IMG/VR virus record: IMGVR_UViG_3300029922_000015
Span: 32,001 to 96,000 of that record
Reading direction: 5' to 3' (one strand)
Source of the DNA: a virus
Length of the DNA stretch: 64,000 nucleotides
The translations under genes and the position numbers were made by a program. The notes under the pieces were generated by a model. That model searched no databases. It was not told where the DNA came from and saw only the letters and a program-made list of their open reading frames with translations. Positions within the stretch are counted from its first letter, which is position 1, and every line of letters starts with the position of its first letter. Below, piece by piece: positions 33,440 through 47,903 of this stretch.

Positions 33440-33531
33440 TGGAAGAGAAAAAGGGATTCGAACCCTTGGAGGACATTTCTGCCCTCGACTCTTTAGCAAA
33501 GAGTTCCGTTAAACCGCTCCGGCATTTCTCC
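33440..33531 (-). tRNA. tRNA-Ser(GCT)
   Basis: Cloverleaf, long V-arm, CCA encoded. Confidence 0.9.
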
Positions 33532-33730
33532 ATAAAATTTTAATATGAGGTTGGATATTCATCAAATTCCTTTGTGTTTCTCCAAACCATCGTTGTTGAA
33601 TGTACTAACTCTTTTTTGACATCTAAATTAGGCGGAGGGGTTTCGAAATAAGAACCTATATAAGTATCTCCTAACTTATTGTTTCGTATAGAACTTACTA
33701 CCCTATAAGCATAAATATTTGACATAAAAA

Positions 33731-33823
33731 TGGCGGTAACGGTAGGATTCTAACCCACGATGGTTTTTTGGGCCATACCAAGGTTCAAGCTTGGCGCAAT
33801 CAAACGGGCTCTGCCACGTTACC
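33731..33823 (-). tRNA. tRNA-Ser(TGA)
   Basis: CCAAG-CTTGAAC-CTTGG anticodon arm, V-arm, CCA. Confidence 0.88.
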
Positions 33824-33827
33824 AAAG

Positions 33828-33915
33828 AGGATAATTGAGGATTCGAACCTCTACCCCGCTCACGCGCGGTCTGTTGTTTTCGAGGCAACTGTGCGGCCTT
33901 TGCACTTAATTATCC
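33828..33915 (-). tRNA. tRNA-Ser(CGA) with 8/4 acceptor/T-stem fold
   Basis: GGATAATT/AATTATCC acceptor, GAGG/CCTC T-stem, anticodon loop CTCGAAA. Confidence 0.8.
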
Positions 33916-33918
33916 GTG

Positions 33919-34006
33919 AGGAGACGACAGGATTTCAACCTGCGAAGGCTGTTTAGACCTTGATCGATTTCCAATCGATTCCATTCGGGCGCTCTGGCAC
34001 GTCTCC
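33919..34006 (-). tRNA. tRNA-Ser(GGA)
   Basis: ATCGA-TTGGAAA-TCGAT anticodon arm, V-arm. Confidence 0.88.
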
Positions 34007-34007
34007 A

Positions 34008-34511
34008 TTAAATTCTATCAGGAAAAGGCATTTCAGTAGCTTTTTCCGTAAACTTACAAATCTTCAAAGTCTTTCGAGACGAACTTTCAAAATTCGCTTT
34101 CAAAATCCCCAAAATCGTATTCCAATCGCCGCCGCCATAACCGCATCCTATTTTATAAGGAATAGTAAAAATTCTTCGGCTAGGCAAATCCTGCAATACT
34201 CGGGTTATACATAGACTAAAAGCCGCGTAATTAGTATAACATTTTCCGCGCCCATAATCAAATTGCGCGTACATATTTGCCACATATTTAATGTGCGAAT
34301 ATCTATCGCTAATTACTTCGGCATAGGAAACGGTTCCCAACTTGCTATCGTCGCCCTTGCGACCGTTACGCGCATCGATTCTATAAGCTTCGGGAATGCG
34401 CCGCTTTATCTCGCGAGCCAACCCCGCGCCCATCGTGCAAAAACAGTTACATTGATGCATCAAACAATCGCTTGGCGTTTTAAAAATGTCAGCTTCGATT
34501 TCTTGAATCAT
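34008..34511 (-). CDS. Macro-domain (ADP-ribose processing) protein
   Basis: HQCNC..TMGAGLA; PYKIGCGYGGGDW. Confidence 0.88.
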   Translation of the reverse strand: MIQEIEADIFKTPSDCLMHQCNCFCTMGAGLAREIKRRIPEAYRIDARNGRKGDDSKLGTVSYAEVISDRYSHIKYVANMYAQFDYGRGKCYTNYAAFSLCITRVLQDLPSRRIFTIPYKIGCGYGGGDWNTILGILKANFESSSRKTLKICKFTEKATEMPFPDRI

Positions 34512-34520
34512 ATAAAAAAA

Positions 34521-34769
34521 TTAAAAGAAAGTATCGGGAGAAATTAATTCTCCTTTTCTCGGGGTAGTTAAATCTACTAAAATATCATTAGCAATATCTT
34601 CTGGCAATGGCTCTATGTTAAATTTTAGAAGATCATCGCCCTCTCTTTTATGATAAACAATCGGGCCGCTTTTTTTCCACGAAACTCCAGAAAGATCGTG
34701 AAGAGTTGCATGATATAAAGTCATACCGCTTTGTTCTAGGTAAGCTAAAAGTTCTTCTGTTTTTGTCAT
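34521..34769 (-). CDS. Hypothetical protein
   Basis: ORF. Confidence 0.5.
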   Translation of the reverse strand: MTKTEELLAYLEQSGMTLYHATLHDLSGVSWKKSGPIVYHKREGDDLLKFNIEPLPEDIANDILVDLTTPRKGELISPDTFF

Positions 34770-34773
34770 AAAG

Positions 34774-34851
34774 TGGTGTCCCGAGAGGGAATCGAACCCC
34801 CAATCTCAACCGTTAGAAGCGGCGCATGTACATCCGTTACACCTTCGGGAC
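34774..34851 (-). tRNA. tRNA-Arg(TCT)
   Basis: Cloverleaf, loop CTTCTAA, CCA. Confidence 0.85.
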
Positions 34852-34883
34852 TTAAATTATTGTATTATGCAATTTATATTTTG

Positions 34884-35753
34884 TCAAGAACTATGTATAA
34901 AATCAAAAGCTTTTTTTATCCAAATTTTGGGCTCCCGATAACAGTCTTTCCAAGGAATCCTAAGTGTTTCCCACCCTAAATCTTTTAGTATTTTATCTCG
35001 TTGTATATCCGAATCAATTTGTTTTTGAAATCGTTGGTGTTGTTCTCCGTCCATTTCAATACATTTTTTTAAATTAATCCATGCGAAATCTAAGGAAAAA
35101 CGATGTAATATATGCTCTCTTGTATAATTTTTATTTTTAAATTCGTTATAAATTACTTTTTCGAACCATTGTTCGGGATATGAGGACTTACCCTTATTTT
35201 GATTATGCCCTAAAGTATAAGCTAATCCCTTTGAGTGTCTTTCCTTCATTATCAAGGACAGTTTTAATTTAGCGGAATCCGAAAGTTTTGGAAAGTTATT
35301 TTTTGTTTTCTGCCATTGACTTAAACTTTTAATTTTGAAAGTTCCTTTTTTAATAGATTTTCTAATATAGTTTAAGGGAATACCCGTTCTAAAAGATAGG
35401 CTTTTTATATTTATTAATTCGGAATTATATATTTTCTGAGCTTCTTCAAGATTATATTCTTTGGTTTTAGGGCGATGTCTAGAAATTTTCTTTTCCGATA
35501 AAATTTTACTGACCGTCATAAAAGATACGGAGTATTTTTTAGATAGCAATCGCCACGACAATCCTAATAAATAATCTCTAACAATATTGTTTCGGTCTTG
35601 CTCTGAAACCGCTTTCTTTTTTCTATTATTAAATCGGCCACTTCCGATAGCTTTACGAATTGTTCCTATGGGTATATTTAAATCAGATAAATATAAATTA
35701 GGATTGTCATCATAAAATTTTTGAATTTCCGGCCAATTATATTTACATTTCAT
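34884..35753 (-). CDS. Homing endonuclease-like protein with C-terminal DUF559/Vsr domain
   Basis: LDFAW..K.CIEMDGEQH...D..RD..L...GW..LRIPW. Confidence 0.8.
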   Translation of the reverse strand: MKCKYNWPEIQKFYDDNPNLYLSDLNIPIGTIRKAIGSGRFNNRKKKAVSEQDRNNIVRDYLLGLSWRLLSKKYSVSFMTVSKILSEKKISRHRPKTKEYNLEEAQKIYNSELINIKSLSFRTGIPLNYIRKSIKKGTFKIKSLSQWQKTKNNFPKLSDSAKLKLSLIMKERHSKGLAYTLGHNQNKGKSSYPEQWFEKVIYNEFKNKNYTREHILHRFSLDFAWINLKKCIEMDGEQHQRFQKQIDSDIQRDKILKDLGWETLRIPWKDCYREPKIWIKKAFDFIHSS

Positions 35754-35801
35754 GGTATAGGTAATTACACCATAATTGCCTTATTGTCTTTTAAAAGAGC
35801 G

Positions 35802-35886
35802 GGCGATAGACCCGGCTCGAACGGGCAATGTCTTTCGACGCGAATTTCACAAATTCGAGGGTTTATCCATTTCTCCTACTACCGCC
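35802..35886 (-). tRNA. tRNA-His(GTG) with extended variable arm
   Basis: G-1:C73 pair, CGAAT-TTGTGAA-ATTCG, GTC-GAAA-GAC V-stem. Confidence 0.8.
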
Positions 35887-36053
35887 ATTAAATTGTTCGA
35901 ACGGTTCTAACGTTTCTTTCGTACCATTCTTTCTTAAGATTTTCCATGAGACTTTTATCACCTTTACCGTAAGCGATTAGCGCCTCGCGCGTTCGAGGGG
36001 CCATTTCTGTTTCCTCTAGATCGTCTTCGGTTCGGGGATTGTTTTTAATCGTC

Positions 36054-36695
36054 TCATCCCAAAGCTGGCTGAATCGTTCGAAAGTCATATTCTATTTTAC
36101 TACAAGTTTTATCTGAAGTCAAGTTTTTTCTTACTAAAACTATCGAATCAATGAATTGTCTAATTTCCGCATCAGAAAAAATTCCCTTGGCTAAATTAAT
36201 TCCCATGCAAACAAACTGGACATTTCCTTGAATATATCCTAATTGCGAATCAATTCTATCTAAACTAGCGGAGTTAATTTTATTTTTCTGCGTCGGTTTA
36301 AAAGGAACTAGGGATATATAAGTGATAGAACACTTTCCTTGTTGCTTCTCCCATAAATCGAAAAGATATTCTAAGGTTAAATTGGTTTCTCCGTGTTTTT
36401 TTCTTTCTTTTGCTTTTCGTAAAAAATATCTAAAAGGAGAAAACTTATCATTTCTATTCAGTAAGCCTTGTTCCGATAGTTCTTTAATTCTAATTCGGGC
36501 CTTAACAAGATTTTGTTCTCTAAACTCAGGGGTTTGATATTGTTTTAAATGTCTGTAATTATCTTGACCAGAGCACTCGGGGGAACAATACGTTCGTCGT
36601 TTCTTTTTTAAATTTCTTTTATGCTCGCTAGGATTTCTAAAAAAATTATTTCCACAATTTTCACATTTTAATTCTATCAGGCTATTATGTCTCAT
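36054..36695 (-). CDS. His-Me finger homing endonuclease
   Basis: CENC..YCSPEC zinc motif; SLDRIDSQLGYIQGNVQFV; start from GTGTAA-N8-ATG. Confidence 0.8.
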   Translation of the reverse strand: MRHNSLIELKCENCGNNFFRNPSEHKRNLKKKRRTYCSPECSGQDNYRHLKQYQTPEFREQNLVKARIRIKELSEQGLLNRNDKFSPFRYFLRKAKERKKHGETNLTLEYLFDLWEKQQGKCSITYISLVPFKPTQKNKINSASLDRIDSQLGYIQGNVQFVCMGINLAKGIFSDAEIRQFIDSIVLVRKNLTSDKTCSKIEYDFRTIQPALG

Positions 36696-36739
36696 ACGGA
36701 GAATTACACCGTGGAGACGAAGGAGAGAAACTAAAAAAG

Positions 36740-37120
36740 TGGACACGAGCGGAGTCGAACCGCTGTCTTAGAAGTATTTAATACACAATGACTTACAAGC
36801 TTTTCCCATTTTGATTCCTTGTGAAGTTAAAAAGGAAAATGACTTCACACATAATCTAATTGTTAATAATAAAATTCAAGTACAATACGATAAAAACTTG
36901 ATTTTATTCAGATTAAACACATCGCAATCCATTATCTGAGTCCTAAACCGCGACGAAAGCTCCCTTTAAGAAGCTAAGGCTATGTCAGCAACGTTTCCGT
37001 TACGTCCATAGCTGGAACGAGTTTTATTGTCGTTTATTTTTTGATTGCTTTCACAACATTCAATCATAGTTGGCTTGCACTATATATCTTCGACTTCCAA
37101 TCGAAGCCTTTTACGTGCCC
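36740..37120 (-). ncRNA. ssrA: tmRNA
   Basis: 5' GGGCACGTAAAAGGCTTCGA, G3:U70 acceptor, T-arm GCGGTTCGACTCCGC; internal tag ORF DNKTRSSYGRNGNVADIALAS* at 36966-37031. Confidence 0.93.
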
Positions 37121-37322
37121 TAAATTAGTTCTTTCTTTAATCTTTCAACAGAATCATTAATTCCTAACGCCTCAGACATCGTTGAGGGAGTTTTCGAATA
37201 AAAAGTTCGCCCGTTAAAAACAAATTCCGCCGCCGTCCCGTAGCAGCTTTGATAAATATGACCTTTTCCTGTATATTTAACTGGAAACCAGTTAGCCGGA
37301 TTAATGATATGAAGCTCGGCGC

Positions 37323-37586
37323 TCATTTTGTTATTTCTTCCTTCGCCATACTATGAATCTCGGCTAGTTGATCAGCCAACTCGCGCAGAACGCGAGGATT
37401 CAATTGAATTCCATGCAAAGCAATTACCGTAGCATTGAACAATCCTTTAGATTTCAAAAAGATCATTTGATTGCCAATTAGCTTTCCCTCCTTAGATTTC
37501 ATAAAATGCGTGTCGATCATTAGACCTACATTTTTATCCTCTTGAGGGGAAAAAGAGAAAGTGTGTTTTTGAAGGAGTTTGCTCAT
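37323..37586 (-). CDS. Hypothetical protein
   Basis: ORF with sigma70-like promoter upstream. Confidence 0.5.
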   Translation of the reverse strand: MSKLLQKHTFSFSPQEDKNVGLMIDTHFMKSKEGKLIGNQMIFLKSKGLFNATVIALHGIQLNPRVLRELADQLAEIHSMAKEEITK

Positions 37587-37636
37587 ACTTCTACTACAAT
37601 ACTACAAGATAAGCTCTTTGTCAAGAGAAAAGAGAG

Positions 37637-37708
37637 AGGTAGCGGTCGGAGTCGAACCGACGATAATGAATTTTGCAGATTCATGCCTTGCCGCTTGGCG
37701 ACGCTACC
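37637..37708 (-). tRNA. tRNA-Cys(GCA)
   Basis: Cloverleaf, U73. Confidence 0.9.
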
Positions 37709-38035
37709 AATGATGCAAGTTATCGCCTTTAAAGGTGGTTCGATGCATTATTAAAGAATATCGAAATCACTAAAACTATGCGCAATCGCATTACGCTCAA
37801 ATGAGTAGAAATAAGATTTTCGGTTTGTCATGGGTTGTTTAAGCTTAACCTTGATAAACCTTTTACCGTTGTAAATATGTATCTTACCGACAAAATTAAA
37901 TTGGCCAAAAAACTCAACGGCGTCTCTTGGAGCGTGTACGTTCACTTTGTTTGATACTTTCTTTGAATTCGGGAGTACAAGGTGTACCTCGCACGATTTC
38001 TACCAATCGAATTTTTTGTTCTGCTGTTAATCTTT

Positions 38036-38317
38036 TCATTTTTCTTTTCTGTAAGACTCACATTTGAAATCTATAATTTTAGAGGCTTGGGCGTGTTGGG
38101 CTAACAACAAATAAACCAATTTCGCGCAAGGGGTAACATCGTCTATCTCGGCTAGCTCCATTCTTGATTCGTGTTGAATTTGATTCCAGCAATTTTTAAG
38201 TAACTCCGCAGAAATATCTACTTGCCCCTGAATCGTTCTCAAGCCAGCCGGAAAGAATAAGACGGTATTATGAGAAGAATCTTCTGGCGTAATCGATTTA
38301 AGTATATCAGAGTCCAT
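38036..38317 (-). CDS. Hypothetical protein
   Basis: ORF. Confidence 0.5.
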   Translation of the reverse strand: MDSDILKSITPEDSSHNTVLFFPAGLRTIQGQVDISAELLKNCWNQIQHESRMELAEIDDVTPCAKLVYLLLAQHAQASKIIDFKCESYRKEK

Positions 38318-38359
38318 GATCTAGAATCATACCACACTTATTCATTTAAGTCAAGAAAA

Positions 38360-38559
38360 TTTTGTTGTAGCCGTAGCCGCGTTTCTGTTTTATCTCTTCA
38401 TTTATCTATGCCTCAACCCGAATATGATCGCGTAACCGACACGCTAATTCTGTTTGAGTTGCTGGTTCCGTGGTAATCGAAATGAATTTCTCCCACGTTA
38501 GGTTATCCAGACGCGAACTTCCTCCAGATTACTCCAGCGAAGAGTCGCTTGCAACAAAA
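38360..38559 (-). ncRNA. rnpB: Minimal RNase P RNA (catalytic domain only)
   Basis: P1 TTTGTTGCA/TACAACAAA; CR-I GAGGAAGTTCGCG; AGCAA; TAGATAAATGA; CR-V ACAGAAACGCGGCTAC; about 200 nt. Confidence 0.85.
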
Positions 38560-38564
38560 AATTT

Positions 38565-38825
38565 TTAACCGTTCGTTGACGGCGCGGGCGTTGGTGCGCT
38601 TTTAGGATTCGGAAAAGCCTTACCCTTTTTCTTCTTAGCGGGATAAGGATATTTTCCTACATTATTAGGATCAACATTATTATTGTTTGTGCTCGGGACG
38701 TTGTAACTATAGCCACTAGTAGGCCAAACATAACCCGCTTTACAAATCGGGCAAATCTTTTTGGGATTTTTCTTGTCCGCCTCGGACATCTTATTTTTTG
38801 ATCCGCAAATGCAATAAGTAAACAT
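38565..38825 (-). CDS. Small zinc-ribbon protein
   Basis: CxC...CPIC; GTGTAA-N8-ATG. Confidence 0.55.
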   Translation of the reverse strand: MFTYCICGSKNKMSEADKKNPKKICPICKAGYVWPTSGYSYNVPSTNNNNVDPNNVGKYPYPAKKKKGKAFPNPKSAPTPAPSTNG

Positions 38826-38844
38826 AATAATATTTACACTAAAA

Positions 38845-38923
38845 TGGTGGGGATAGTCGGGATCAAACCGACGCCGAAGCTTTGAGAGAGCTACATCCTA
38901 ATCAACTATTAGACGATATCCCC
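38845..38923 (-). tRNA. tRNA-Glu(CTC)
   Basis: Cloverleaf, CCA. Confidence 0.82.
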
Positions 38924-38929
38924 GTAAAG

Positions 38930-39004
38930 TGGTAGCCCATGACGGTTACGATCCGTCTTTCGAAGCTTGAAAGGCTTCTGAATTAACCATTATTCGAATG
39001 GGCC
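38930..39004 (-). tRNA. tRNA-Glu(TTC)
   Basis: Cloverleaf, atypical T-loop ATCGTAA, CCA. Confidence 0.82.
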
Positions 39005-39011
39005 AATTAAA

Positions 39012-40097
39012 TTATCTACCTAACAAATCTTTCCAATGCTCTAAACCGACTCTAACATAACTACGAAGAGCTTGTCTTCCGTCTTCGACGGCGTTGTCGT
39101 CGTTTAACAAATATAATCCTGTACGAGCTATGCTTGTCGGGTCTTCACAATTACACCACCAGTCTCGCGGCGTCCATTCAATAGAGCTTCCCACTACGGA
39201 AGGAACTCCCATAGAAATTCCATCGGCGGTTACAACATTGAAGGTTTCATCGAAACTTGGTTGAAGAAGTAAATGCATGTGGGCGACAGTATTCTTAAAA
39301 GTCGGCCAAGACTCCCAAGGCACGTCGATTAACTTCGCATCTCTTTCCCCTACAAATAAATCTAATCTAGATTGAAATAAAAGCCTTTCATAATCCCGAC
39401 GAGAGTTAACGTATAACTCTAAATTTACGCCTAATTGTCTAGAAAGTTGATAAGCGCCCATTGCGGCGGTTAATTGATTCTTCCAAGGGCGAGGAGCGCC
39501 GAAGGAGCCAATACGAATCGTATCTCCTATCTTTCTTTTTCGAGGATATGGATTAACAAAAGAATGGGTATCATAAAGATTTGGAAGATACAAGCATTCG
39601 CAACGATATGTCTTTCTTAGCCATTCGACAAAGCGCGTGTTATTGCCACTCACTTTAACATTAGAAGTTGCTTTTTGTAATTCAATTATTTTTTTATTGC
39701 AAAGAATTCCTGATTCATCTCTATTTCTGTCAATAGAAAGATAGGCGCAACCCGTATGATTCTGGAGAATAAACTCAATATGAGGGAAAGCGTAGGCAAG
39801 CTCTGCCATTTGTTTCGCCGTAATCCAGCTAGGGGAATTAATAATAACGTGACTAGGACGGATAGAATTAAATTGAATAGCGTGATCGTTCGCCGCTTTG
39901 ATTTGAGAATAAACTTCTTCAAAATTTTGTCCCGACCAAATTTCAGCGAAATAACCTTCTCGTCTTAAAACGTTAATATTGTTTTGATTAGTTACCCCAA
40001 GTCCAATATTGGAAATCCCCGGCCCACCGAAGTTTTTAGCGAAGAAAATAACGCGGGCTGTTTCTTTCTTCGGATTTAAATGATGAGGACGATGCAT
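39012..40097 (-). CDS. GT-B (GT4-like) glycosyltransferase
   Basis: GAPRPWKN; QPSFDETFNVVTADGISMGVP. Confidence 0.75.
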   Translation of the reverse strand: MHRPHHLNPKKETARVIFFAKNFGGPGISNIGLGVTNQNNINVLRREGYFAEIWSGQNFEEVYSQIKAANDHAIQFNSIRPSHVIINSPSWITAKQMAELAYAFPHIEFILQNHTGCAYLSIDRNRDESGILCNKKIIELQKATSNVKVSGNNTRFVEWLRKTYRCECLYLPNLYDTHSFVNPYPRKRKIGDTIRIGSFGAPRPWKNQLTAAMGAYQLSRQLGVNLELYVNSRRDYERLLFQSRLDLFVGERDAKLIDVPWESWPTFKNTVAHMHLLLQPSFDETFNVVTADGISMGVPSVVGSSIEWTPRDWWCNCEDPTSIARTGLYLLNDDNAVEDGRQALRSYVRVGLEHWKDLLGR

Positions 40098-40181
40098 AGC
40101 GTATAATAGATTCTATAATTTTTACACGCCTTTGTCTACTAATATTTAAATTAGTTATTATTAATATTTTCTTAACAAAAA

Positions 40182-40257
40182 TGGTGGCGCAACACAGAAT
40201 CGAACTGTGAATCTGGCCTTATGAGAGCCGCGTGATAACCTCTTTCACCATAGCGCC
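40182..40257 (-). tRNA. tRNA-Met/Ile2(CAT)
   Basis: Paired G1:C72, loop CTCATAA, CCA. Confidence 0.8.
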
Positions 40258-40260
40258 GAA

Positions 40261-40334
40261 TGGCAGGACAGCACGGAATCGAGCCGTGACCAAGAGATTT
40301 GGAGTTTCTTGTGCTACCTTTACACTACTGTCCT
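40261..40334 (-). tRNA. tRNA-Trp(CCA)
   Basis: Cloverleaf, G73. Confidence 0.88.
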
Positions 40335-40340
40335 ATAAAT

Positions 40341-41537
40341 TTATTGCCAAACGTGAACCCAATCAACATTGATTGGCTGATTTGGGCCACCCTGTAGTAA
40401 CAAGAACATTGACTGGATTTCTTGGGCGGTCAACTTGCTTCCCGTTCCGGTTGCAAAACGGGTTACACCACCCGCATGAACAACTAACTTATTATCATAA
40501 TAAAATTCAATATATCCCGTTCCGGTTCCAGTTGAAACCCACAAGCCGCCATAAGTATGCCAAGCCCCATCCGTAGGAGATGGAGATTCGCTCGATCCCT
40601 GCAAGCTCATCATTTGGTTTTCATTATCCGTATTAGCTATATCTGAGTCGTTATAACTATTAGCGGGATAATTCCAAGTATGGATTGTATTGATTGGATC
40701 AAACGTTGTTGAACTTAGGGGATAAGCTTCAAAAAAGTCTAATTCGCTTACCAAAGTAGCAGGGTGAGTTGCGGGATTCGTTGCGAAGAAGTTAGTTCCC
40801 CAAGCCCAAAATCCGGGCCAAGTTGCCGCGCTAGGATCATCAGGAGTTGAATTAAATTGAATACGAGCTTCAAAATAACCATGTTCCCAAGAACCGGCTG
40901 TCGTTCCGGGTGCGGAATTAGGTGGCATTGTTTCTACGTTGCCGCCTACTACGTTTAAAATACCATTCGCGCCCGCTAACGCGCCAGTTCCGGCTCCTGT
41001 ATTAACGGTTGCTTTGGTTGCTGGAGCCCAAAAAGAAGGATACCAATTAAATCCATTCGTAGCAGAACCTAATGTTACAGTGTCGGATGTAAAATCATCA
41101 TTAAAAATTAAATTGTGAAACCCCGCCGCGCTAGCTTGAGAAGGAACGGTAACTCCAGAAGGCGTTACGCCCGTTGGAGATGTTCCGCTAGTACCAGTGG
41201 GTTGAACGTTAACTCCTGATAGTTGAGCTTCGAGCGAAGTAATTTCGCTATTTAATCCAACAATTTGTGTCTTTAAACTAGACACTTGGGAATTAAGTCC
41301 GCTATTAACCGTTGTTAGAGAAGCATTAGAACTTTGTAGCGAGACGATTTGGCCGCTGGCTGTCACTAATTGACCGTTAAGGCTTGAAATTTGTGAGACG
41401 TAATTTCCTGTGGTATTAGCTAATCCACTATAATTAGAAATTACCGTTGAAAGTCCGCCTGTTTGATTGGCTAAAATAGCAATTTCGCCAATGGTTGAAA
41501 GTAATACACTTAAATCGTTTTGTTGTGCCGTAGTCAT
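40341..41537 (-). CDS. GH16 glycoside hydrolase with N-terminal coiled coil
   Basis: IFNDDF, GYFEARI, WPGFW, ELDFFE, WHTYG and VDWVHVWQ motifs; start from GTGTAA-N8-ATG. Confidence 0.85.
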   Translation of the reverse strand: MTTAQQNDLSVLLSTIGEIAILANQTGGLSTVISNYSGLANTTGNYVSQISSLNGQLVTASGQIVSLQSSNASLTTVNSGLNSQVSSLKTQIVGLNSEITSLEAQLSGVNVQPTGTSGTSPTGVTPSGVTVPSQASAAGFHNLIFNDDFTSDTVTLGSATNGFNWYPSFWAPATKATVNTGAGTGALAGANGILNVVGGNVETMPPNSAPGTTAGSWEHGYFEARIQFNSTPDDPSAATWPGFWAWGTNFFATNPATHPATLVSELDFFEAYPLSSTTFDPINTIHTWNYPANSYNDSDIANTDNENQMMSLQGSSESPSPTDGAWHTYGGLWVSTGTGTGYIEFYYDNKLVVHAGGVTRFATGTGSKLTAQEIQSMFLLLQGGPNQPINVDWVHVWQ

Positions 41538-41581
41538 ACTGACCATTACACCCCTTAGCATCTTTGGGAATAACTATAAAT

Positions 41582-41669
41582 TGGTGCGGCTAGCGAGAAT
41601 CGGACTCGCAATCCCTCGCGGGCGACAGATTTTAAGTCTGTTGTGTATACCTAGTTCCACCATAACCGC
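41582..41669 (-). tRNA. tRNA-Leu(TAA)
   Basis: Cloverleaf with V-arm. Confidence 0.9.
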
Positions 41670-41672
41670 AAA

Positions 41673-41858
41673 TTATCTTAAATGTGGATTATAATCCACT
41701 ATCGAAAATCCAAAAACTATTTGAAGAAGCCAAAGAACAACCAAGACAATTACTACAATATTAATTATCTTTTTAATGGTAGCGTCCATCGGAATGTAGG
41801 TATTCGCTAACCAAAGCAAAAATCCGATAAGAATAAGAGTTATTACTATACTAATCAT
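41673..41858 (-). CDS. Small two-TM membrane protein
   Basis: MISIVITLILIGFLLWLANTYIPMDATIKKIINIVV; start from GTGTAA-N8-ATG. Confidence 0.7.
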   Translation of the reverse strand: MISIVITLILIGFLLWLANTYIPMDATIKKIINIVVIVLVVLWLLQIVFGFSIVDYNPHLR

Positions 41859-41886
41859 ATCTATATTTACACTAGAATGACAAAAA

Positions 41887-41960
41887 TGGTATCCCGCCCC
41901 GGAATCGAACCGAGAAATCCGCTTTGGAAGAGCGGCATTATGCCGTTTAACTAGCGAGAT
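41887..41960 (-). tRNA. tRNA-Gly(TCC) with atypical acceptor stem
   Basis: CCGCT-CTTCCAA-AGCGG; acceptor ATCTCGC/GCGGGAT, A73. Confidence 0.8.
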
Positions 41961-41970
41961 ATAAATTAAA

Positions 41971-42065
41971 TCATACAACGGCGCTTCGCCTCTCCAAGCC
42001 ACCCCACTAAGCCCGAATCGAACGGGAATGCTAGAACGCGCGTATGGCTGCTTTTCGTTATATGA
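41971..42065 (-). ncRNA. Unclassified structured RNA with a T-loop
   Basis: TCATATAACG/CGTTGTATGA closing stem, AGCCAT/GTGGCT, CCCG-TTCGATT-CGGG. Confidence 0.5.
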
Positions 42066-42068
42066 AAA

Positions 42069-42151
42069 TGGTGCAAGTAACAGGACTCGAACCTGTGAAG
42101 CCGAAGCAGTGAATTTACAGTTCACCGGATTTGCCGCTCTCCAATACTTGC
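42069..42151 (-). tRNA. tRNA-Tyr(GTA)
   Basis: Cloverleaf with V-arm. Confidence 0.9.
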
Positions 42152-42157
42152 ATAAAG

Positions 42158-42246
42158 TGGCTCCTGCCGGATTCGAACCGGCGATTCGCGCCTATCTGGC
42201 GCTTGCAGGATATAAATCTGCTGTTTTGCCGCTAAACTAAGGAGCT
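42158..42246 (-). tRNA. V-arm-containing tRNA(TAT), nominally Ile
   Basis: Loop TTTATAT, GCGCC/GGCGC V-stem, A1:C72 mismatch. Confidence 0.75.
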
Positions 42247-42249
42247 AAA

Positions 42250-42326
42250 TGGTTGCGCAGGATGGATTCGAACCACCGATTTCGACCTTATGAGGATCGC
42301 GAGATAGGCCACTTCTCTACCGCACT
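42250..42326 (-). tRNA. Initiator-like tRNA-Met(CAT)
   Basis: A1:A72 mismatch; lacks the 3 G:C anticodon-stem pairs. Confidence 0.78.
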
Positions 42327-42332
42327 ATTAAA

Positions 42333-42394
42333 TGGTTGCAGAGATTGGAGTTTCACCAATTTTCGAGGCTCATGAGACTTCGGTAAACTCTGCA
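42333..42394 (-). tRNA. D-arm-less tRNA-like RNA (CAT)
   Basis: TGCAGAG/CTCTGCA-A-CCA acceptor, short TTTAC linker, loop CTCATGA, ATTGG/CCAAT T-stem; 62 nt. Confidence 0.7.
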
Positions 42395-42399
42395 TTAAA

Positions 42400-42476
42400 T
42401 GGTAACGGGGAAAGGATTTGAACCTCTGACCTTTTGGTTATGAGCCAAACGAGCTACCAGACTGCTCCACCCCGCA
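42400..42476 (-). tRNA. Initiator tRNA-fMet(CAT)
   Basis: U1:U72 mismatch, GGAGCAGTCTGGTAGCTCG D-arm, TTCAAAT T-loop. Confidence 0.88.
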
Positions 42477-42549
42477 ATTAAATCAAACGAACTAAGGTAA
42501 GTGCATACTTTTTCAGGTCGGGCTTTACGACTGCTCCCTAGTTCTCAAA

Positions 42550-42629
42550 TGGTAGCCCAAATAGGATTCGAACCTACATATTATTCCGTTATGCTCCCAT
42601 CGCTTCGAAGGCGCGGTCAATATTGGGCT
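42550..42629 (-). tRNA. Aberrant tRNA-like RNA, anticodon TCG (Arg)
   Basis: Perfect acceptor and T-arm with CCA; no canonical D-arm; CGC-CTTCGAA-GCG. Confidence 0.55.
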
Positions 42630-43179
42630 ATAAAATTTTATAAAATCTACACCATTTTCTTACGGCATTATCAGAAACTCCATATTTCTTTCCCGCCGCC
42701 ACAAAACTATGATCTACTAAAAATAATTGTAATTCTTCTTTAGAAGGCCATAAAACTTTTCTTCGTTTTTCATCATAAATTTTAGTAAATTTATTTTTAT
42801 AACGCTTACGAAATTCTATATTATTTTCTCTAAGAATTTTTTTTATCCTATAATAACTATAACTAGATTGATTAATTTCGAGCTTAATCAAAATTTCATT
42901 TATAGAAATTCCGCTATTATATAAATCTAATACTATATTATAATCTATTTTCTTAGAGGACTTTTGATTATTGACATTCGTTGTTGGTTCTTGACTGTGG
43001 CAATTAGGACATAGAAATTCAACATTTTCTATCCTATGATCTTCTGATTGCCCATTTTTATGATGTAATTCTAAAGTTAGTGTTTTACCTTGCCACTCCC
43101 CTTTATTCCCGCATCGGCAAATATACGGAATCAAATTTTCCCGTAATATTTTCTTTTTAAAAGTGCATCTCGAACTCAT
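42628..43179 (-). CDS. HNH homing endonuclease
   Basis: LELHHKNG...N..FLCPNCHS. Confidence 0.85.
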   Translation of the reverse strand: MSSRCTFKKKILRENLIPYICRCGNKGEWQGKTLTLELHHKNGQSEDHRIENVEFLCPNCHSQEPTTNVNNQKSSKKIDYNIVLDLYNSGISINEILIKLEINQSSYSYYRIKKILRENNIEFRKRYKNKFTKIYDEKRRKVLWPSKEELQLFLVDHSFVAAGKKYGVSDNAVRKWCRFYKIL

Positions 43180-43229
43180 AATATGTATTACATATTATAT
43201 GTTCTAAAGAGAAATTTATCTAATAAAAA

Positions 43230-43306
43230 TGGTGAACCATGCCCGATTTGAACGGGCAATCTCAAATTTCGTAGATTTGTGCTGTATCCAGTTTAGCTAA
43301 TGGTTC
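43230..43306 (-). tRNA. tRNA-Arg(ACG)
   Basis: Cloverleaf, CCA. Confidence 0.88.
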
Positions 43307-43313
43307 GTGAAAT

Positions 43314-43497
43314 TGGTGGCCCGATTGCTATTGACATTCTTTCGATAATATAATCAATAACTAACTAATAGACCGCTCCTGAGCCAACACGCCAATCTAG
43401 GTTCCAAGTTATCGACTTAGTTTAACCAGACTTGTCTATTAGTTTATTAAATATTGTCCCTACAGGTTCTAGACCCTTCAAGACTTTTCAATAATAA
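43314..43497 (-). ncRNA. ~185-nt rod-like RNA ending in ACCA (6S-like candidate)
   Basis: TATTGA/TCAATA outer stem, AACTAATAGAC/GTCTATTAGTT inner stem, internal bubble. Confidence 0.45.
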
Positions 43498-43499
43498 AA

Positions 43500-43576
43500 T
43501 GGTGGAGCATATCGGTATTGCGCCGATCTGATTCGAAGGTGCAAGCTTCGCGACCACCCTTGCAGTCCCATGCCCC
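43500..43576 (-). tRNA. tRNA-Ala(TGC)
   Basis: G3:U70 pair; atypical T-loop. Confidence 0.85.
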
Positions 43577-43585
43577 ATTTAAAAT

Positions 43586-43659
43586 TGGTACGCCCAAATC
43601 GAATCGAACGATTATCTAAGCTTTCAGAGAGCTTCGTCCTACCATTAGACGACAGGCGT
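43586..43659 (-). tRNA. tRNA-Gln(CTG)
   Basis: Cloverleaf, CCA. Confidence 0.85.
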
Positions 43660-44076
43660 GTTTACTAAAAAATTGCCTCCCATATGTGGCCCCGAATTAA
43701 TATGGGCCGTGTGCATATCGGAAGAAAAATTATCATTAGTCCCGATACGAGGCCAGAATTGATAATCGTAACTATCTTTTCGCACCGCTAATATCCTAAC
43801 ATCCCAAAAACCTTTAGGATCGGAATCGCGCCAAATTTGATTAGGTTTAAGTTTCTTCATAAATTTCCCTAACATCCTTTTCAGGATTCCAGAATACTTT
43901 ATCTGGATTCTTCATATAAAATTCAATCTTGGCCCGCACGGCTTTAGAATCGTGGAACGCGCACAAAGCGCCGAAAAACTGAGGCGGCATATTCGCCGTT
44001 ACCCATTCTCGACACTCCGCTGGAATATTCAGCAAAATATTCGCGCATTCCTTGGAAATCGTTTTTTGATTATCGT

Positions 44077-44409
44077 TCATTTTTGCCATGTAAAACCTCT
44101 ACCCTTACAAGACGAACAAGTTACTTGACTCCAACCTCTAGAATGATGAACGGTATTCCAACCGCCGTGTTCGCACTTAGTACAAGTAATTTTTTTATAT
44201 CCTCGTTCTTCCATGCTTTTAACATTTTCGGGAAGAACCATCGCTTGAGTATAATGAGAATATGAAATACCTTGAACGCTTCCGTTTTTTATTTGCATCG
44301 GGCCATTGACTTGCCAGCCTTGTTCTAACAAATTTTGAACGGCGTATTCTAAAGTTTGACAACCTTCGCAACTTAATACTCTATAATCTTTAGCTTGCAT
44401 AGAATTCAT
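44077..44409 (-). CDS. DUF1737-like protein with DnaJ-type zinc finger
   Basis: V..LLEQGWQVNG...YTQAMV; CxxC..CxxCxGxG. Confidence 0.55.
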   Translation of the reverse strand: MNSMQAKDYRVLSCEGCQTLEYAVQNLLEQGWQVNGPMQIKNGSVQGISYSHYTQAMVLPENVKSMEERGYKKITCTKCEHGGWNTVHHSRGWSQVTCSSCKGRGFTWQK

Positions 44410-44866
44410 CCAAAAACTTAAACAATTCTTTATTTTCTGTCATAAATACCCAACCGGACGTTCTATCTAAAGTGTCCGCGTATAAATCAACAAATCCCTG
44501 TCTAGTGCCATGAGGCTGTTCATTCTCTTGCAAATCTCTTCGAATAGCGGGAACAATATCGTCTCCGCGCATCGCCCAACTATCTCCATCTTTATGGGTT
44601 CGTCTGTCCGATAAATTTATATTGTCGGGCAACTGTCCAACTTTTTCTAAAGGAAAAACAGTCCCATAAGGAGCGCCTTGATCGTGATGATATTCAGTGA
44701 ATAAATATCGTTCGTTGAATTTCAATCTGATACCTATAAATCCTTCGTTTCCATCATAGGCACCTAAATCTAAATTTCTGCTACGGAGTTTATAAACGCC
44801 GCCCCTGACGCATTCCTTAAGGGGAATATAAGATTGATTATTCATCGCATTAAGGGGACTTTCCAT
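44390..44866 (-). CDS. Hypothetical protein
   Basis: ORF. Confidence 0.55.
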   Translation of the reverse strand: MESPLNAMNNQSYIPLKECVRGGVYKLRSRNLDLGAYDGNEGFIGIRLKFNERYLFTEYHHDQGAPYGTVFPLEKVGQLPDNINLSDRRTHKDGDSWAMRGDDIVPAIRRDLQENEQPHGTRQGFVDLYADTLDRTSGWVFMTENKELFKFLDEFYAS

Positions 44867-45054
44867 TTAAATCCTTTTCCCTCACAAGTCAAACAGGGTA
44901 TTAGAACGGGAAATTTTGGTTGATTCTCTTCGTGAACCCATTTTTCTTGTCTGCCTGTACCCTTACAAGCAAGACACTTATCTCTCGTATATCCACGAGC
45001 AATCAATCCTTCTTGCGCTTGAATTTCTTCTAGGAATTCTTTATCTGATTTCAT
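44842..45054 (-). CDS. DnaJ-type zinc-finger small protein
   Basis: CLACKGTG...CLTCEGKG; start taken at MKSDK. Confidence 0.55.
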   Translation of the reverse strand: MKSDKEFLEEIQAQEGLIARGYTRDKCLACKGTGRQEKWVHEENQPKFPVLIPCLTCEGKGFKWKVPLMR

Positions 45055-45060
45055 AAAAAG

Positions 45061-45138
45061 TGGCGGAAACAACGGGACTCGAACCCGCAAACCTTCCGCG
45101 TGACAAGCGGACGCTCTAACCAATTGAGCTATGCTTCC
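45061..45138 (-). tRNA. tRNA-Asp(GTC)
   Basis: Cloverleaf, G73. Confidence 0.92.
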
Positions 45139-45142
45139 AAAG

Positions 45143-45217
45143 TGGTACGCCGTGAGAATTTTGAAATCCCGGCCTGAGCTGTGTAAAAGCCCTGCTCTGC
45201 CTCTGAGCTAACGGCGC
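45143..45217 (-). tRNA. tRNA-Val(TAC)
   Basis: Cloverleaf, CCA. Confidence 0.85.
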
Positions 45218-45222
45218 GTAAA

Positions 45223-45558
45223 TTAATCTAAAAAAGGTTCAATGACAATCGCTCTATAAGTAATAGAGCCCGCATCTCTTCGAACCTCGCTAAAATGTTG
45301 AAGATATGGTTCCATCCCGTTCTTTACGTCGTCAACAAAATTATGAACCATTAATTTAACGTAACGTTTAGCCAAATCTGGCCCAAGGTTTCCACCTATT
45401 ACAATCGTCGTTTTCTCTGGCTTTGTTGAAATATTCTTTCCGGTAAAAGTAATTTCTGACTCATAAACGCCATCGGCGTAAGGACGTGGCTGGCCTTGAC
45501 GAATGTGCTTAACTAACACACAAAAATTGTATTCTGTCTTATTTGGATCGATTTCCAT
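45223..45558 (-). CDS. Hypothetical protein
   Basis: ORF; start taken at MEIDPNK. Confidence 0.5.
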   Translation of the reverse strand: MEIDPNKTEYNFCVLVKHIRQGQPRPYADGVYESEITFTGKNISTKPEKTTIVIGGNLGPDLAKRYVKLMVHNFVDDVKNGMEPYLQHFSEVRRDAGSITYRAIVIEPFLD

Positions 45559-45736
45559 TTTTTTTACCAGTACACTTGACACGAAGATAACAGGCTACGG
45601 CTAATGCGACGTAAACCCACGGCATTGTGATAATGATGACTTCGGATGGAGGCATATTAATTAAAGTTAACTAAATTGTATTTCATCTTGTTGCGGTTTT
45701 TCATTAAAAGAATGATAATTCTTTTTGATCAAAATG

Positions 45737-45943
45737 TCAAACTAAAAATGTACAAAGACCGCTATCTTGAATATGCCAAGAAACGGGCTCGCCGTGGGAA
45801 GTCTTCTTTCGGCGTTGATATTGGCTCGCGCAAACGCGCTGCTTTTTATCTTCCGAAAACTTCTCGACAGCGTAAGACTGTAAGCAACCACACATAAACT
45901 CATCTTGTTCCGCGTTATATTCGGAATCTTTATTAGGCTTCAT
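45737..45943 (-). CDS. Small hypothetical protein
   Basis: Start from GTGTAA-N8-ATG (MKPNKDS). Confidence 0.55.
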   Translation of the reverse strand: MKPNKDSEYNAEQDEFMCGCLQSYAVEKFSEDKKQRVCASQYQRRKKTSHGEPVSWHIQDSGLCTFLV

Positions 45944-45965
45944 GTAAACTATTACACTTCGAAAG

Positions 45966-46044
45966 TGGCCGCTTCCCTCAGAATCGAACTGAGGCTTCAA
46001 GTTTTTCAGACTCGTGTGCAAAGACCAAACTACACTAGGAAGCG
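45966..46044 (-). tRNA. tRNA-Phe(GAA)
   Basis: Cloverleaf; unusual C1:G72 and G73. Confidence 0.83.
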
Positions 46045-46048
46045 AAAA

Positions 46049-46131
46049 TGGAGCCGAGTGAGAGACTCTAACTCTCGATGTTTGTATGGCACATTACAAG
46101 TATGCTGGAATCGACGCTATCCGAACTCGGC
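46049..46131 (-). tRNA. tRNA-Thr(TGT) with long variable region
   Basis: GCATA-CTTGTAA-TGTGC; 12-nt variable region. Confidence 0.8.
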
Positions 46132-46841
46132 TTAAAATTTTTTTTAAAATCTTCAAATTGTTTTTTTGTATTATTTCCATATCCATATTTATTATGAAAT
46201 TGTCTATGAACTTTAATAGACAAAGTAATACCATTCTCTTCAATGAAACGTAAATCTGGATTATTATTATAACTTTCTAAATGATGAGCTACTATTTTTG
46301 TATTAACACCACTTATTTGACACGTAAAATTATCTCTTTCCCAAACGGCTTTACGCCATTTTATGTTACGGGGATCATGTCTATTTCTAATACGTTTCTC
46401 GTCTGATATATTCGAATTCTTTTTAAATCTTCCTCTATTAGTATTATTTATACATCCGCAAGACTTAGTGTTTCCGCTTTCCAGATTAAAAGCGGGAACT
46501 TCGATTTCTTTTCCGCAAGAGCACAAACACTTGCAATAACTTCTTCTACTCTGTTTAGTAAAAACTTCTTTCACTAAAAGATTAGAAAAATTTTTACCTA
46601 AAACCCTATTTCGAAGATCGGTTTTTCTCCGTTCTGTAAATAATTTTATTTTATTAAATTGCTTACATTTGCAAGAAGTAGTCAAGCCTCTTAAAACACT
46701 AGAAACTCTAACTTCTACAGCATTACCACAATCACATAAAAATAATCCTAATACATGAATATTTCGACTATCTTTACCTATTATTTTATTCAATGTCAAA
46801 TTACCGAATTTTTTATTAATAAGACGATCATATTTAGTCAT
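46068..46841 (-). CDS. HNH homing endonuclease
   Basis: Repeated CDCG..SC domains; WRKAVWERD..CQ, AHHL...NGITL..H..FH motifs. Confidence 0.85.
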   Translation of the reverse strand: MTKYDRLINKKFGNLTLNKIIGKDSRNIHVLGLFLCDCGNAVEVRVSSVLRGLTTSCKCKQFNKIKLFTERRKTDLRNRVLGKNFSNLLVKEVFTKQSRRSYCKCLCSCGKEIEVPAFNLESGNTKSCGCINNTNRGRFKKNSNISDEKRIRNRHDPRNIKWRKAVWERDNFTCQISGVNTKIVAHHLESYNNNPDLRFIEENGITLSIKVHRQFHNKYGYGNNTKKQFEDFKKNFKPSSDSVDSSILVMCHTNIES

Positions 46842-46898
46842 CTATATATTATAGATTTCTAAGTACAAAACGTCTACATTATCTTAAATTACAAAAAA

Positions 46899-46976
46899 TG
46901 GAGGCCCGCATCGGACTCGAACCGATGACCTTCCCCATACCAAGGGGATGTTCTAACCAGACTGAACTAGCAGGCC
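46899..46976 (-). tRNA. tRNA-Thr(GGT)
   Basis: Cloverleaf, CCA. Confidence 0.88.
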
Positions 46977-46981
46977 AAAAG

Positions 46982-47058
46982 TGGAGGCCCATATCAGATT
47001 TAAACTGATAACCTGAAATGTACGAAATTTCCGCTCTAATCATTGGAGCTAATGGGCC
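46982..47058 (-). tRNA. tRNA-Thr(CGT)
   Basis: Cloverleaf, CCA. Confidence 0.83.
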
Positions 47059-47063
47059 AAATA

Positions 47064-47137
47064 TTCGAGTGTGCGTCCGTACACCAAACGGGCAATCGCG
47101 TATTACCCTCGCCTGAATTGAACAGTTCCCTCTCGAA
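47064..47137 (-). ncRNA. Possible permuted tRNA-like RNA
   Basis: TTCGAG/CTCGAA closing stem, CTG-TTCAATT-CAG T-arm first, then two hairpins. Confidence 0.4.
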
Positions 47138-47139
47138 AG

Positions 47140-47213
47140 TGGTACTCCTACCAAGAGTCGAACTTGGGTAGCGCGCTTATCGGGCGTGTGCTCTACCATT
47201 GAGCTATAGGAGT
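47140..47213 (-). tRNA. tRNA-Ile(GAT)
   Basis: Cloverleaf; C33. Confidence 0.87.
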
Positions 47214-47220
47214 AATAAAG

Positions 47221-47294
47221 TGGTTCCCTCGTGTCGATTCGGACGACAAATAAACGGGCCAAAACCGTTTGTGATACCATTTCACTACAAGAGA
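47221..47294 (-). tRNA. tRNA-Gln(TTG)
   Basis: U1:A72 pair, AACGG-TTTTGGC-CCGTT. Confidence 0.85.
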
Positions 47295-47299
47295 GTAAA

Positions 47300-47383
47300 T
47301 CAACAAGAAATATCCTAAACCACTAGAAGACTCTTACTCCATGAGTAAGAGGATGGATTCGAACCACCGTCTTTTCTTTTAAA
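47300..47383 (-). ncRNA. Circularly permuted tRNA mimic (YrlA-like) 1
   Basis: Order: AGAAA, GGTGG-TTCGAAT-CCATC, CTCTTACTC-ATG-GAGTAAGAG, TTCT-AGTGGTTT-AGGA, TTTCT. Confidence 0.75.
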
Positions 47384-47388
47384 TCAAA

Positions 47389-47457
47389 ATCGTCAAGTGT
47401 TTTACTATTAAACTATGGCATCTAACCACCAAGGATTTGCACCTAGAACTCCTGACT
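47389..47457 (-). ncRNA. Circularly permuted tRNA mimic (YrlA-like) 2
   Basis: GTCAGG, CTAGG-TGCAAAT-CCTTG, closed acceptor, GTTT-AATAGTA-AAAC, CTTGAC. Confidence 0.7.
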
Positions 47458-47462
47458 TTAAA

Positions 47463-47537
47463 TGGCACCCAAGCTTCGATTCGAACGAAGAACAGCCGTG
47501 TTAACAGCACGGAACTCTACCATTGAGCTACTCGGGT
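47463..47537 (-). tRNA. tRNA-Asn(GTT)
   Basis: Cloverleaf, G73. Confidence 0.9.
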
Positions 47538-47547
47538 ATAAAATTTT

Positions 47548-47695: not shown

Positions 47696-47697
47696 AG

Positions 47698-47774: not shown

Positions 47775-47903
47775 GTAAAACGATAAGCAAGTCAATATAC
47801 CCTCTCCTTGATCCTATATCTCCATCACAAACGCCTTACCGTTTGTACCGACGTAATAATATAGTCATGTTATGACTTATCAGAGCGATTAGCTTATCTA
47901 AAA

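Follow-up and report, generated by a model that had tools for sequence, protein, structure and literature searches.

The window, that is, the whole 64,000-nt stretch of viral DNA that we analysed, carries at positions 38360-38559 of its minus strand a 200-nt element that is a new, phage-borne variant of bacterial-type (class A-like) RNase P RNA, devoid of the specificity domain (S-domain). We consider it very probable that this RNA is a homologue of RNase P RNA, and its predicted function, that of a ribozyme processing the 5' ends of tRNAs, is likely. An earlier note on this DNA had taken the element for an RNase P RNA of about 200 nt, encoded by the phage and lacking the specificity domain, and four lines of evidence support this core reading. 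First, the helices occur in the order of the class A catalytic domain and covary. Second, RNase P models of Rfam match the element and its larger relatives with significant E values, below the gathering score. Third, the element is seated inside tRNA arrays and, fourth, it co-occurs with the protein subunit RnpA in two huge phages.

RNase P RNA is regarded as a universal ribozyme of cells. In full-text literature searches, with subscription-only papers outside reach, we came across no description of an RNase P RNA encoded by a virus. RNase P is unmentioned in a survey of huge phages (PMC7162821) and in the paper describing phage DLP6 (PMC5349666), and a 2024 review of RNase P presents phage tRNAs as substrates of the host enzyme, textbook knowledge since the work on T4 (PMC11143913).

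Architecture of the element

The element belongs to a 150-kb IMG/VR virus record that is about 75% complete, and lies in a 247-nt gap between two small minus-strand ORFs (38036-38317 and 38565-38825), its 200 nt being counted from the 5' strand to the 3' strand of P1. Our covariance model of the family, R1, matches it at 38366-38552 with 180 bits, and the Rfam model RF00373 at 38363-38556 with an E value of 6.3e-5. When the sequence is read along the minus strand, every motif listed in the earlier note is present where it had been placed. The order is P1, P2, P3, GAGGAAGUUCGCG, P5, a 41-nt insert, CCAG-CAA, P15, P16/17, GGGUU-GAG, UAGAUAAAUGA, GAAGAG (P2'), ACAGAA-ACGCGGCU (P4') and finally GCU..CAACAAAA (P1').

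The P1 helix, proposed before, is formed by a distal part, UUUUGUUG (38559-38552) with CAACAAAA (38367-38360), and a proximal part, AGC (38549-38547) with GCU (38371-38369), the two strands occupying 38547-38559 and 38360-38371; the three proximal pairs covary (45-51 members). In P2, CUCUUC (38539-38544) pairs with GAAGAG (38394-38399), double-sided changes are found at all six pairs, and 96-98% of cells are paired. The P3 hairpin CUGGA-GUAA-UCUGG (38524-38537) is closed by a GNRA loop; its basal pairs covary, and it is between 3 bp and about 10 bp long, depending on the family member. The segment that contains CR-I and the 5' strand of P4, GAGGAAG[U]UCGCGU (38511-38524), has a bulged U at 38517 and matches E. 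coli positions 61-75, CR-I itself being GAGGAAGUUCGCG at 38524-38512. CR-V (38375-38388) consists of J2/4, ACAGAA at 38388-38383, followed by the 3' strand of P4, ACGCGGCU at 38382-38375; its E. coli counterpart is ACAGAACCCGGCUUA at 347-361. The pairing of CR-I with CR-V claimed earlier is thus found as AG[U]UCGCGU (38519-38511) with ACGCGGCU, bulged U included, as in E. coli. Some members have ACAAAA, ACAGGA or GCAAAA at J2/4; the window copy has the canonical ACAGAA.

P5 joins CUGG (38507-38510) to CCAG (38462-38465), with 99% of cells paired and covariation at all four pairs. Its 3' strand runs into J5/15 GCAA (38459-38465 together), which is invariant or nearly so in 45 members and corresponds to GCAAG at 246-250 of E. 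coli, A38460 being the counterpart of A248; the conserved tract AGCAA, also pointed out before, lies at 38463-38459. Between the P5 strands, the J5/7 segment UAACC (38501-38505) is the 5' strand of P6 and the complement of GGUUA at 38433-38437. The 5' strand of P15, CUC(AA), and the 5' side of L15, AACAG, together cover 38450-38458 (E. coli CCAAAUAGG at 252-260), and P15 covaries with 93-95% of cells paired. It is followed by the P16/17 hairpin (38420-38450), of which the loop UGUCGGUUA contains the 3' strand of P6; both helices of the hairpin covary, with 96% of cells paired in the outer one and 77% in the inner one. The 3' side of L15, GGGU, then the P15 3' strand, UGAG, occupy 38412-38419. 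This is the counterpart of G292-G293-U294 in E. coli, where GGGU is at 291-294, and the L15 GGU is invariant in 45 members. The second conserved tract of the earlier note, UAGAUAAAUGA at 38408-38398, is CR-IV (J15/2, with no P18); it is conserved across the family, and its E. coli counterpart is UAGAUGAAUGA at 327-337.

The conserved single-stranded nucleotides of RNase P RNA are the functional ones in E. coli. This set (GAGGAA, GCAA, GGU, AGAU.AAUGA and ACAGAA) is present at topologically equivalent places in the phage RNA, and is invariant or nearly so across 45 members.

A stub in place of the S-domain

The insert between the P5 strands measures 41 nt (38506-38466) in the window RNA, versus about 165 nt in class A RNA. 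The earlier note had counted about 45 nt at the place of the S-domain: the insert is short, as claimed, and the exact length is 41 nt. It consists of the J5/7 linker carrying the P6 strand, then a GUGG/CCAC stem that encloses GAG, a small hairpin and GAUUA. The resulting 27-nt P7-like stub (GUGG-GAG-hairpin-GAUUA-CCAC, 38470-38496, minus strand) is the sole occupant of the place of the S-domain (P7-P14). By its position, the stub stem is P7. It is the weakest helix of the RNA (73% paired) and covaries less cleanly, these values coming from a model-fitted alignment. The Rfam RNase P models skip their S-domain columns at the stub. We had also considered the stub as a remnant of P10/11 with CR-II/CR-III, and dropped this idea because the position is that of P7 and the Rfam alignments place no part of the stub in S-domain columns. 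No counterpart of P8-P14 or of CR-II/CR-III was found, even in members in which the insert is about 100 nt longer. P18 is absent from the window copy, where GGCAUAGAU comes directly after P15; one or two hairpins stand at the place of P18 in DLP6 and in about 20 other members.

Covariation of the helices

Covariation supports P1, P2, P3, P5, P15 and P16/17, together with the two pseudoknots P4 and P6. In an unfitted MAFFT alignment of 45 members (A2), 29 pairs were evaluated, covering the proximal part of P1, the P2 pseudoknot, P3, P4, P5 and P15. The two partners were able to pair in 96.0% of cells, versus 26-45% when the partners were slid by 1-3 columns, and 280 double-sided changes were counted. 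The covariation score of this alignment was 0.583, as compared with 0.158 +/- 0.011 for shuffled alignments, none of which reached it in 500 trials. A second alignment of 51 members and 35 pairs (A4) adds P16/17 and the stub stem; it is fitted to the model and leans towards it, and gave 90.6% paired cells versus 32-40% after sliding, with 514 double-change cells. Moreover, RNAalifold recovered P1, P3, P4, P5, P15 and P16 from 11 sequences without any hint.

The helix between the P17 loop and J5/7 (UAACC/GGUUA in the window RNA) is P6, the second pseudoknot of class A, and not of class B. A helix of at least 4 contiguous bp forms at this place in 47 of 51 members, with about 15 different sequence pairs, and its mean length is 5.02 bp versus 3.20 +/- 0.11 with mismatched partners. 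The other pseudoknot, P4, looked invariant, most members having been found with patterns that contain P4. Its closing pair covaries (A-U in 36 members, G-C in 5, U-A in 2 and C-G in 1), and compensatory changes at the inner pairs were seen in three copies found by blastn or R1, namely those of phage records LR756502 and LR745206 and copy G124. In place of UCGCG/CGCGG, LR756502 has UCAAC/GUUGA, and LR745206 has UCGAC/GUCGG together with a flip of the outer G-C, while the P4 of G124 is E. coli-like, with 5 bp, a bulged U and 3 bp. The single-sequence minimum free energy fold of the window RNA is mildly better than that of shuffles (z = -1.9); this value is uninformative, since a mild z is expected of a pseudoknotted RNA.

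Database and profile searches

The earlier note had proposed a search of Rfam as a check, and the answer depended on the scope of the search. It was negative for the whole window at the gathering score and for a 500-nt slice at E<=10, and positive for a 217-nt slice taken from the coordinates of that note, which gave a single match among 4,227 Rfam families. This match was to the archaeal RNase P model RF00373 (RNaseP_arch); it runs over the full model (1-288) with the S-domain columns skipped, and scores 22.5 bits (E 6.3e-5) for a cut-off of 84. RF00373 is the best match of the Rfam clan on the window and outscores any match of RF02357, the model of archaeal type T. The bacterial class A model RF00010 (gathering threshold 100 bits) had no match on the window, on the slices or on the whole 150-kb phage record. 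The larger member L020 matches RF00010 with 44.1 bits (E 1.8e-10, and 1.1e-12 on a narrow slice), and two others match RF00373 (L049, E 7e-7; L035, E 7e-4). All three matches fall exactly on the R1 coordinates.

Similarity to rnpB at the level of sequence is limited to short blocks plus architecture. Over these blocks, 66 of 102 positions are identical to E. coli M1 RNA, and the motifs stand at the classic positions (CR-I 61-75 with U69, A248, GGGU 291-294, CR-IV 327-337 and CR-V 347-361). Neither the whole E. coli rnpB nor two pieces of its catalytic domain (C-domain) matched the window at the element with nhmmer --max or blastn-short. A profile HMM built from 50 class A rnpB genes, with the S-domain columns removed, had no match in the window and reached at most 10.6 bits in larger members; therefore, homology is not arguable from primary sequence alone. 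Conversely, R1 gave 5.8 bits (E 2.4) on the E. coli rnpB locus, which is not significant, though the match was placed at the rnpB 3' end. As a side observation, one proteobacterial genome shows, besides its full-length rnpB and 56 nt from it, a second, partial RF00010 match of 226 nt and 33.6 bits (G012:C22:272535-272760, minus strand), which may be a tandem truncated copy.

A family in large phages

The family to which the element belongs numbers at least 49 non-redundant copies, located on contigs of large phages. A scan of viral contigs keyed solely on CR-IV..CR-V retrieved 10 contigs, and GAGGAAGUUCGCG was found 117-195 nt upstream in all 10, which places the motif set far beyond chance. 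A viral scan keyed on CR-I gave at least 119 stretches, about 65 of them real and 49 non-redundant among the matches listed; the remaining half or so of the listed CR-I-only matches were chance occurrences in GC-rich coding DNA and were discarded. A blastn search of GenBank phages returned one match, to the CR-IV/CR-V block, in the Stenotrophomonas phage DLP6. It lies inside an unannotated 258-nt gap of a tRNA array, where the same architecture is built from different helix sequences; the DLP6 copy occupies about 105778-106014 of KU682439.2.

R1 was built from 19 compact seeds (189 positions, 35 pairs). It found exactly one copy in each of 51 sources, with E values from 1e-22 to 1e-52, and one copy per complete phage record. 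On the 150-kb record of the window it also found exactly one copy; its 180 bits come by construction, as the window copy is in the seed. DLP6, which is outside the seed, scored 110 bits (E 3e-31). Unannotated copies were present in the phage records LR756501/3 (735 kb), LR756502 (642 kb) and LR745206 (635 kb). In a search with a specific pattern of one genome from each of 185,579 prokaryotic species, 3 of 21 matches were real copies, all on contigs of metagenome-assembled genomes (MAGs), and the other 18 were due to chance. One of the MAGs that bear a copy also has a normal rnpB of 311 bits, thus the miniature form is an extra copy. We also noted a truncated-looking copy of 54 bits on a contig of an Opitutus-bin MAG (L140:1024-1132, minus strand). 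On the opposite strand of that contig, at a distance of 2.4 kb, R1 gives another, weak match (16 bits, E 2e-4).

The tRNA array and its predicted transcription

Copies of the RNA are neighbours of tRNA genes: 40 of the 49 members listed have tRNAs within 5 kb, of which 424 share the orientation of the element and 1 has the opposite one, and many copies abut a tRNA at 0-20 nt. The array of the window comprises 33 tRNAs and a tmRNA, all on the strand of the element, with small ORFs intermixed. CCA is encoded by 26 of 31 array tRNAs, and a U is found at position -1 in 22 of 31. In bacterial RNase P, the GGU loop reads the CCA of the tRNA and A248 reads N(-1). As judged from the sequences, the conserved GGU loop and the A248 equivalent would match the CCA and U(-1) of the array tRNAs. 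The RNA keeps the standard readers of CCA and N(-1), which fit the mostly canonical tRNAs of the array.

We found neither a promoter nor a terminator belonging to the window RNA itself, nor any separating it from the upstream tRNAs, and in DLP6 the corresponding gap lies inside a transcription unit of 21 tRNAs (PMC5349666). From this context we infer that the RNA would be co-transcribed with the array and released by tRNA-processing nucleases. A near-consensus sigma-70 promoter with an extended -10 (TTGACT-17-TG-TATGAT) is predicted at 38326-38354 on the minus strand; it begins 6 nt past the 3' end of the RNA and faces the ORF 38036-38317.

Other features of the array deserve mention. The tmRNA (36737-37120, minus strand; RF00023, 97 bits; predicted tag ending in ...ADIALAS) is encoded on the strand of the RNase P RNA, 1.2 kb downstream of it, and would be an expected RNase P substrate. 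Within the array (33440-49542), some tRNAs were predicted by ARAGORN only (His 35801-35885, Arg(acg) 43230-43306, Thr(tgt) 46049-46131 and Gln(ttg) 47221-47294) and others by Rfam only (38848-38923 and 48473-48544), a disagreement that hints at atypical tRNAs. The ORF immediately upstream of the RNA (38565-38825, minus strand) encodes an 86-aa basic protein that combines a zinc-ribbon-like CxxC...CxxC motif with a low-complexity tail; no Pfam family fits it convincingly, and other phages do not keep it beside the RNA. The flanking ORFs were rejected as dedicated cofactors, as they have neither an RNase P protein domain nor synteny in other members. Further into the array, a 64-aa ORF (37751-37945, minus strand) resembles ribosomal protein S19 (PF00203, 22.3 bits for a cut-off of 27, E 1.2e-4), and a 361-aa ORF (39012-40097, minus strand) matches the conflict-system GT4 glycosyltransferase family PF20706 below the cut-off (16.8 bits) and has a 29%-identical homologue in another member locus (L087). 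Finally, the tRNA array of another member phage contains two YrlA (Y RNA-like, RF02553) matches below the cut-off, of 28 and 23 bits (L065:3542-3654 and 2682-2795, minus strand).

The probable protein partner

No RnpA (PF00825) was found in the phage record of the window, about 75% complete, or in 47 of the 48 other member records, among which are DLP6 and nine more of at least 90% completeness; the cofactor therefore has to be assumed to come from the host. The exception among the 49 surveyed records is a 476-kb phage that encodes an RnpA of 99 aa, with 50 bits, above the Pfam cut-off (L199:6377-6676, minus strand, which is G077:C1:440376-440675). The gene is adjacent to ClpP, with a Pol-beta-type nucleotidyltransferase nearby and ORFans around, a setting that differs from the bacterial rpmH-rnpA-yidC. 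Relatives of this protein, 54-67% identical, are encoded on four other viral contigs (L201-L204), and the lineage is one of huge phages, with contigs of 159-483 kb. The near-complete 483-kb contig, found through its RnpA (59% identical), carries the miniature RNA at 112 bits. RnpA above the Pfam cut-off and the miniature RNA are thus both present in two near-complete phages, of 476 and 483 kb, and no other RNase P RNA was found in any record that encodes RnpA.

Comparison with known RNase P RNAs and ribozymes

The closest comparison is with class A RNA (RF00010; M1/rnpB of E. coli, 377 nt), which has the same helix order, P1-P5...P15-P16/17...P2'-P4'-P1'. The bulged U of P4 and the P6 helix linking L17 to J5/7 are common to both; CR-I, CR-IV, CR-V, GCAA (A248) and GGGU (291-294) stand at equivalent positions, and RnpA, the bacterial protein subunit, is encoded by two carriers of the phage RNA. 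In contrast to class A, the phage RNA has no P8-P14 and no CR-II/CR-III, and the window copy has no P18; its J3/4 is one A shorter, and its P4 is UCGCG/CGCGG rather than CCGGG/CCCGG. It also sits in phage tRNA arrays, does not reach the Rfam gathering score and escapes profiles built on sequence alone.

The archaeal type T RNA of the Thermoproteaceae (RF02357; PMC3579882, PMC13462272) resembles the phage RNA in that it is about 200 nt long and keeps the catalytic domain with an unrecognisable specificity domain. However, type T is archaeal, has Pop5, Rpp30 and L7Ae as partners, and is the only RNase P RNA of the cell, whereas the phage RNA is bacterial in signature (the L15 GGU loop, and RnpA in two phages), is an extra, virus-borne copy, and is found on phage contigs, including that of a Stenotrophomonas phage. 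The likeness is convergent in outcome, and common descent is not shown.

A third comparison is offered by engineered RNAs reduced to the C-domain (Eco CP RPR), which cleave pre-tRNA in the absence of the S-domain, the bacterial C-domain alone doing so with reduced efficiency (PMC5839562). Unlike these laboratory deletions, the phage RNA is a natural, conserved family, and has compensating features of its own, namely a P7-like stub whose internal loop is conserved and a P3 capped by a GNRA loop. The HDV-like theta ribozymes of gut phages (PMC10879173) are also phage-encoded, stand beside phage tRNAs and have been proposed to process tRNA ends. However, they are self-cleaving and proposed to remove the 3' trailer in cis, whereas the phage RNA is of a trans-acting type that would act at the 5' end.

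Proposed mechanism and alternative explanations

Taken together, the conserved features point to an active RNase P RNA, blind to the tRNA elbow, that probably works with the RnpA of the host and, rarely, of the phage. The RNA keeps the catalytic domain (P1-P5, P15, P16/17, the pseudoknots P4 and P6, CR-I, CR-IV, CR-V, the A248 equivalent and the GGU loop), with the 27-nt P7-like stub standing in for a specificity domain of about 165 nt. It is probably co-transcribed with the phage tRNA array and cut out by tRNA-processing enzymes, after which its protein partner would probably be the RnpA of the host or, in a few huge phages, that of the phage itself. The RNA-RnpA complex would then cleave the 5' leaders of the phage pre-tRNAs and pre-tmRNA, recognising its substrates through the acceptor stem, N(-1) and CCA and leaving the T/D-loop elbow unread. 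During infection, the phage would thereby be supplied with a catalytic subunit of its own. The activity of the engineered C-domains (PMC5839562) makes such a mechanism plausible.

The earlier note had further suggested that loss of the S-domain, which reads the T/D-loop elbow, may suit the many tRNAs of this array with abnormal T-loops or D-arms. The S-domain-less form is common to the whole family, including DLP6, whose tRNAs are annotated as ordinary, therefore it would not be a special adaptation of this array, and our analysis leaves the proposed link to abnormal tRNAs weakened. The fit of the retained CCA and N(-1) readers to an array of mostly canonical tRNAs also speaks against it. A general relaxation of elbow recognition is possible. 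One could extend this to a hybrid ribozyme of relaxed specificity, a scenario that we put forward tentatively and regard as rather doubtful. A phage RNA without elbow recognition would take over the host RnpA, a few huge phages bringing their own, and mature the array, including tRNAs with abnormal D/T-arms or tRNA-like RNAs that the host enzyme handles poorly; tRNA supply might thereby become independent of the host during takeover or tRNA-directed defence.

A ribozyme derived from RNase P might also have been retargeted beyond ordinary pre-tRNA 5' ends, towards tRNA-like or aberrant elements, pre-tmRNA, the ORF-tRNA junctions of the array transcript or host RNAs. Loss of the elbow-reading domain should relax or shift the choice of substrates, and small ORFs stand among the tRNAs and the tmRNA of the array. 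However, the conserved readers (the GGU loop and the A248 equivalent) are canonical, the array tRNAs supply CCA and U(-1), and the family is present in phages with tRNAs annotated as ordinary, hence we judge retargeting to be unlikely.

Slightly less probable still is a weak or inactive mimic that would titrate host RnpA or pre-tRNAs, depressing host tRNA maturation or redirecting the host protein. With no RnpA in 47 of the 48 other member records, the RNA would have to compete with host M1 RNA for the host protein, and CR-IV and CR-V, which contact RnpA, are its best-conserved parts. Yet conservation and covariation extend to the entire active-site architecture (P4 with its bulged U, J3/4, J2/4, the A248 equivalent, the GGU loop and P6) and not just to the protein-binding surface; the phages that have their own RnpA still keep the RNA, and the need for RNase P activity is raised, not lowered, in a phage with more than 30 tRNAs. 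That the element is a functionless fragment of a captured host rnpB in decay, or a set of chance motifs, is hardly credible: it would agree with the lack of any Rfam match at the gathering score and of any pairwise or profile match to bacterial rnpB, but at least 49 diverged copies retain the same helices through hundreds of compensatory changes, each genome has a single copy co-oriented with its tRNA array (424 tRNAs versus 1), and capture followed by decay would not yield deletion of the same domain in phages from unrelated samples.

Significance

If the reading of an active, S-domain-less RNase P RNA is true, a conserved virus-encoded RNase P RNA would extend to viruses the distribution of this ribozyme, and the phage RNA would be a natural, bacterial-type counterpart of the minimal archaeal type T. 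GenBank records leave the genes of these miniature RNAs unannotated, and Rfam, at its thresholds, misses them. The family would provide dozens of natural sequences that define what the catalytic domain needs in the absence of the S-domain. One carrier, DLP6, is cultured, and a few huge phages have a gene for the protein subunit too; the questions of why phages carry big tRNA arrays, and how these are matured, would thus become directly testable.
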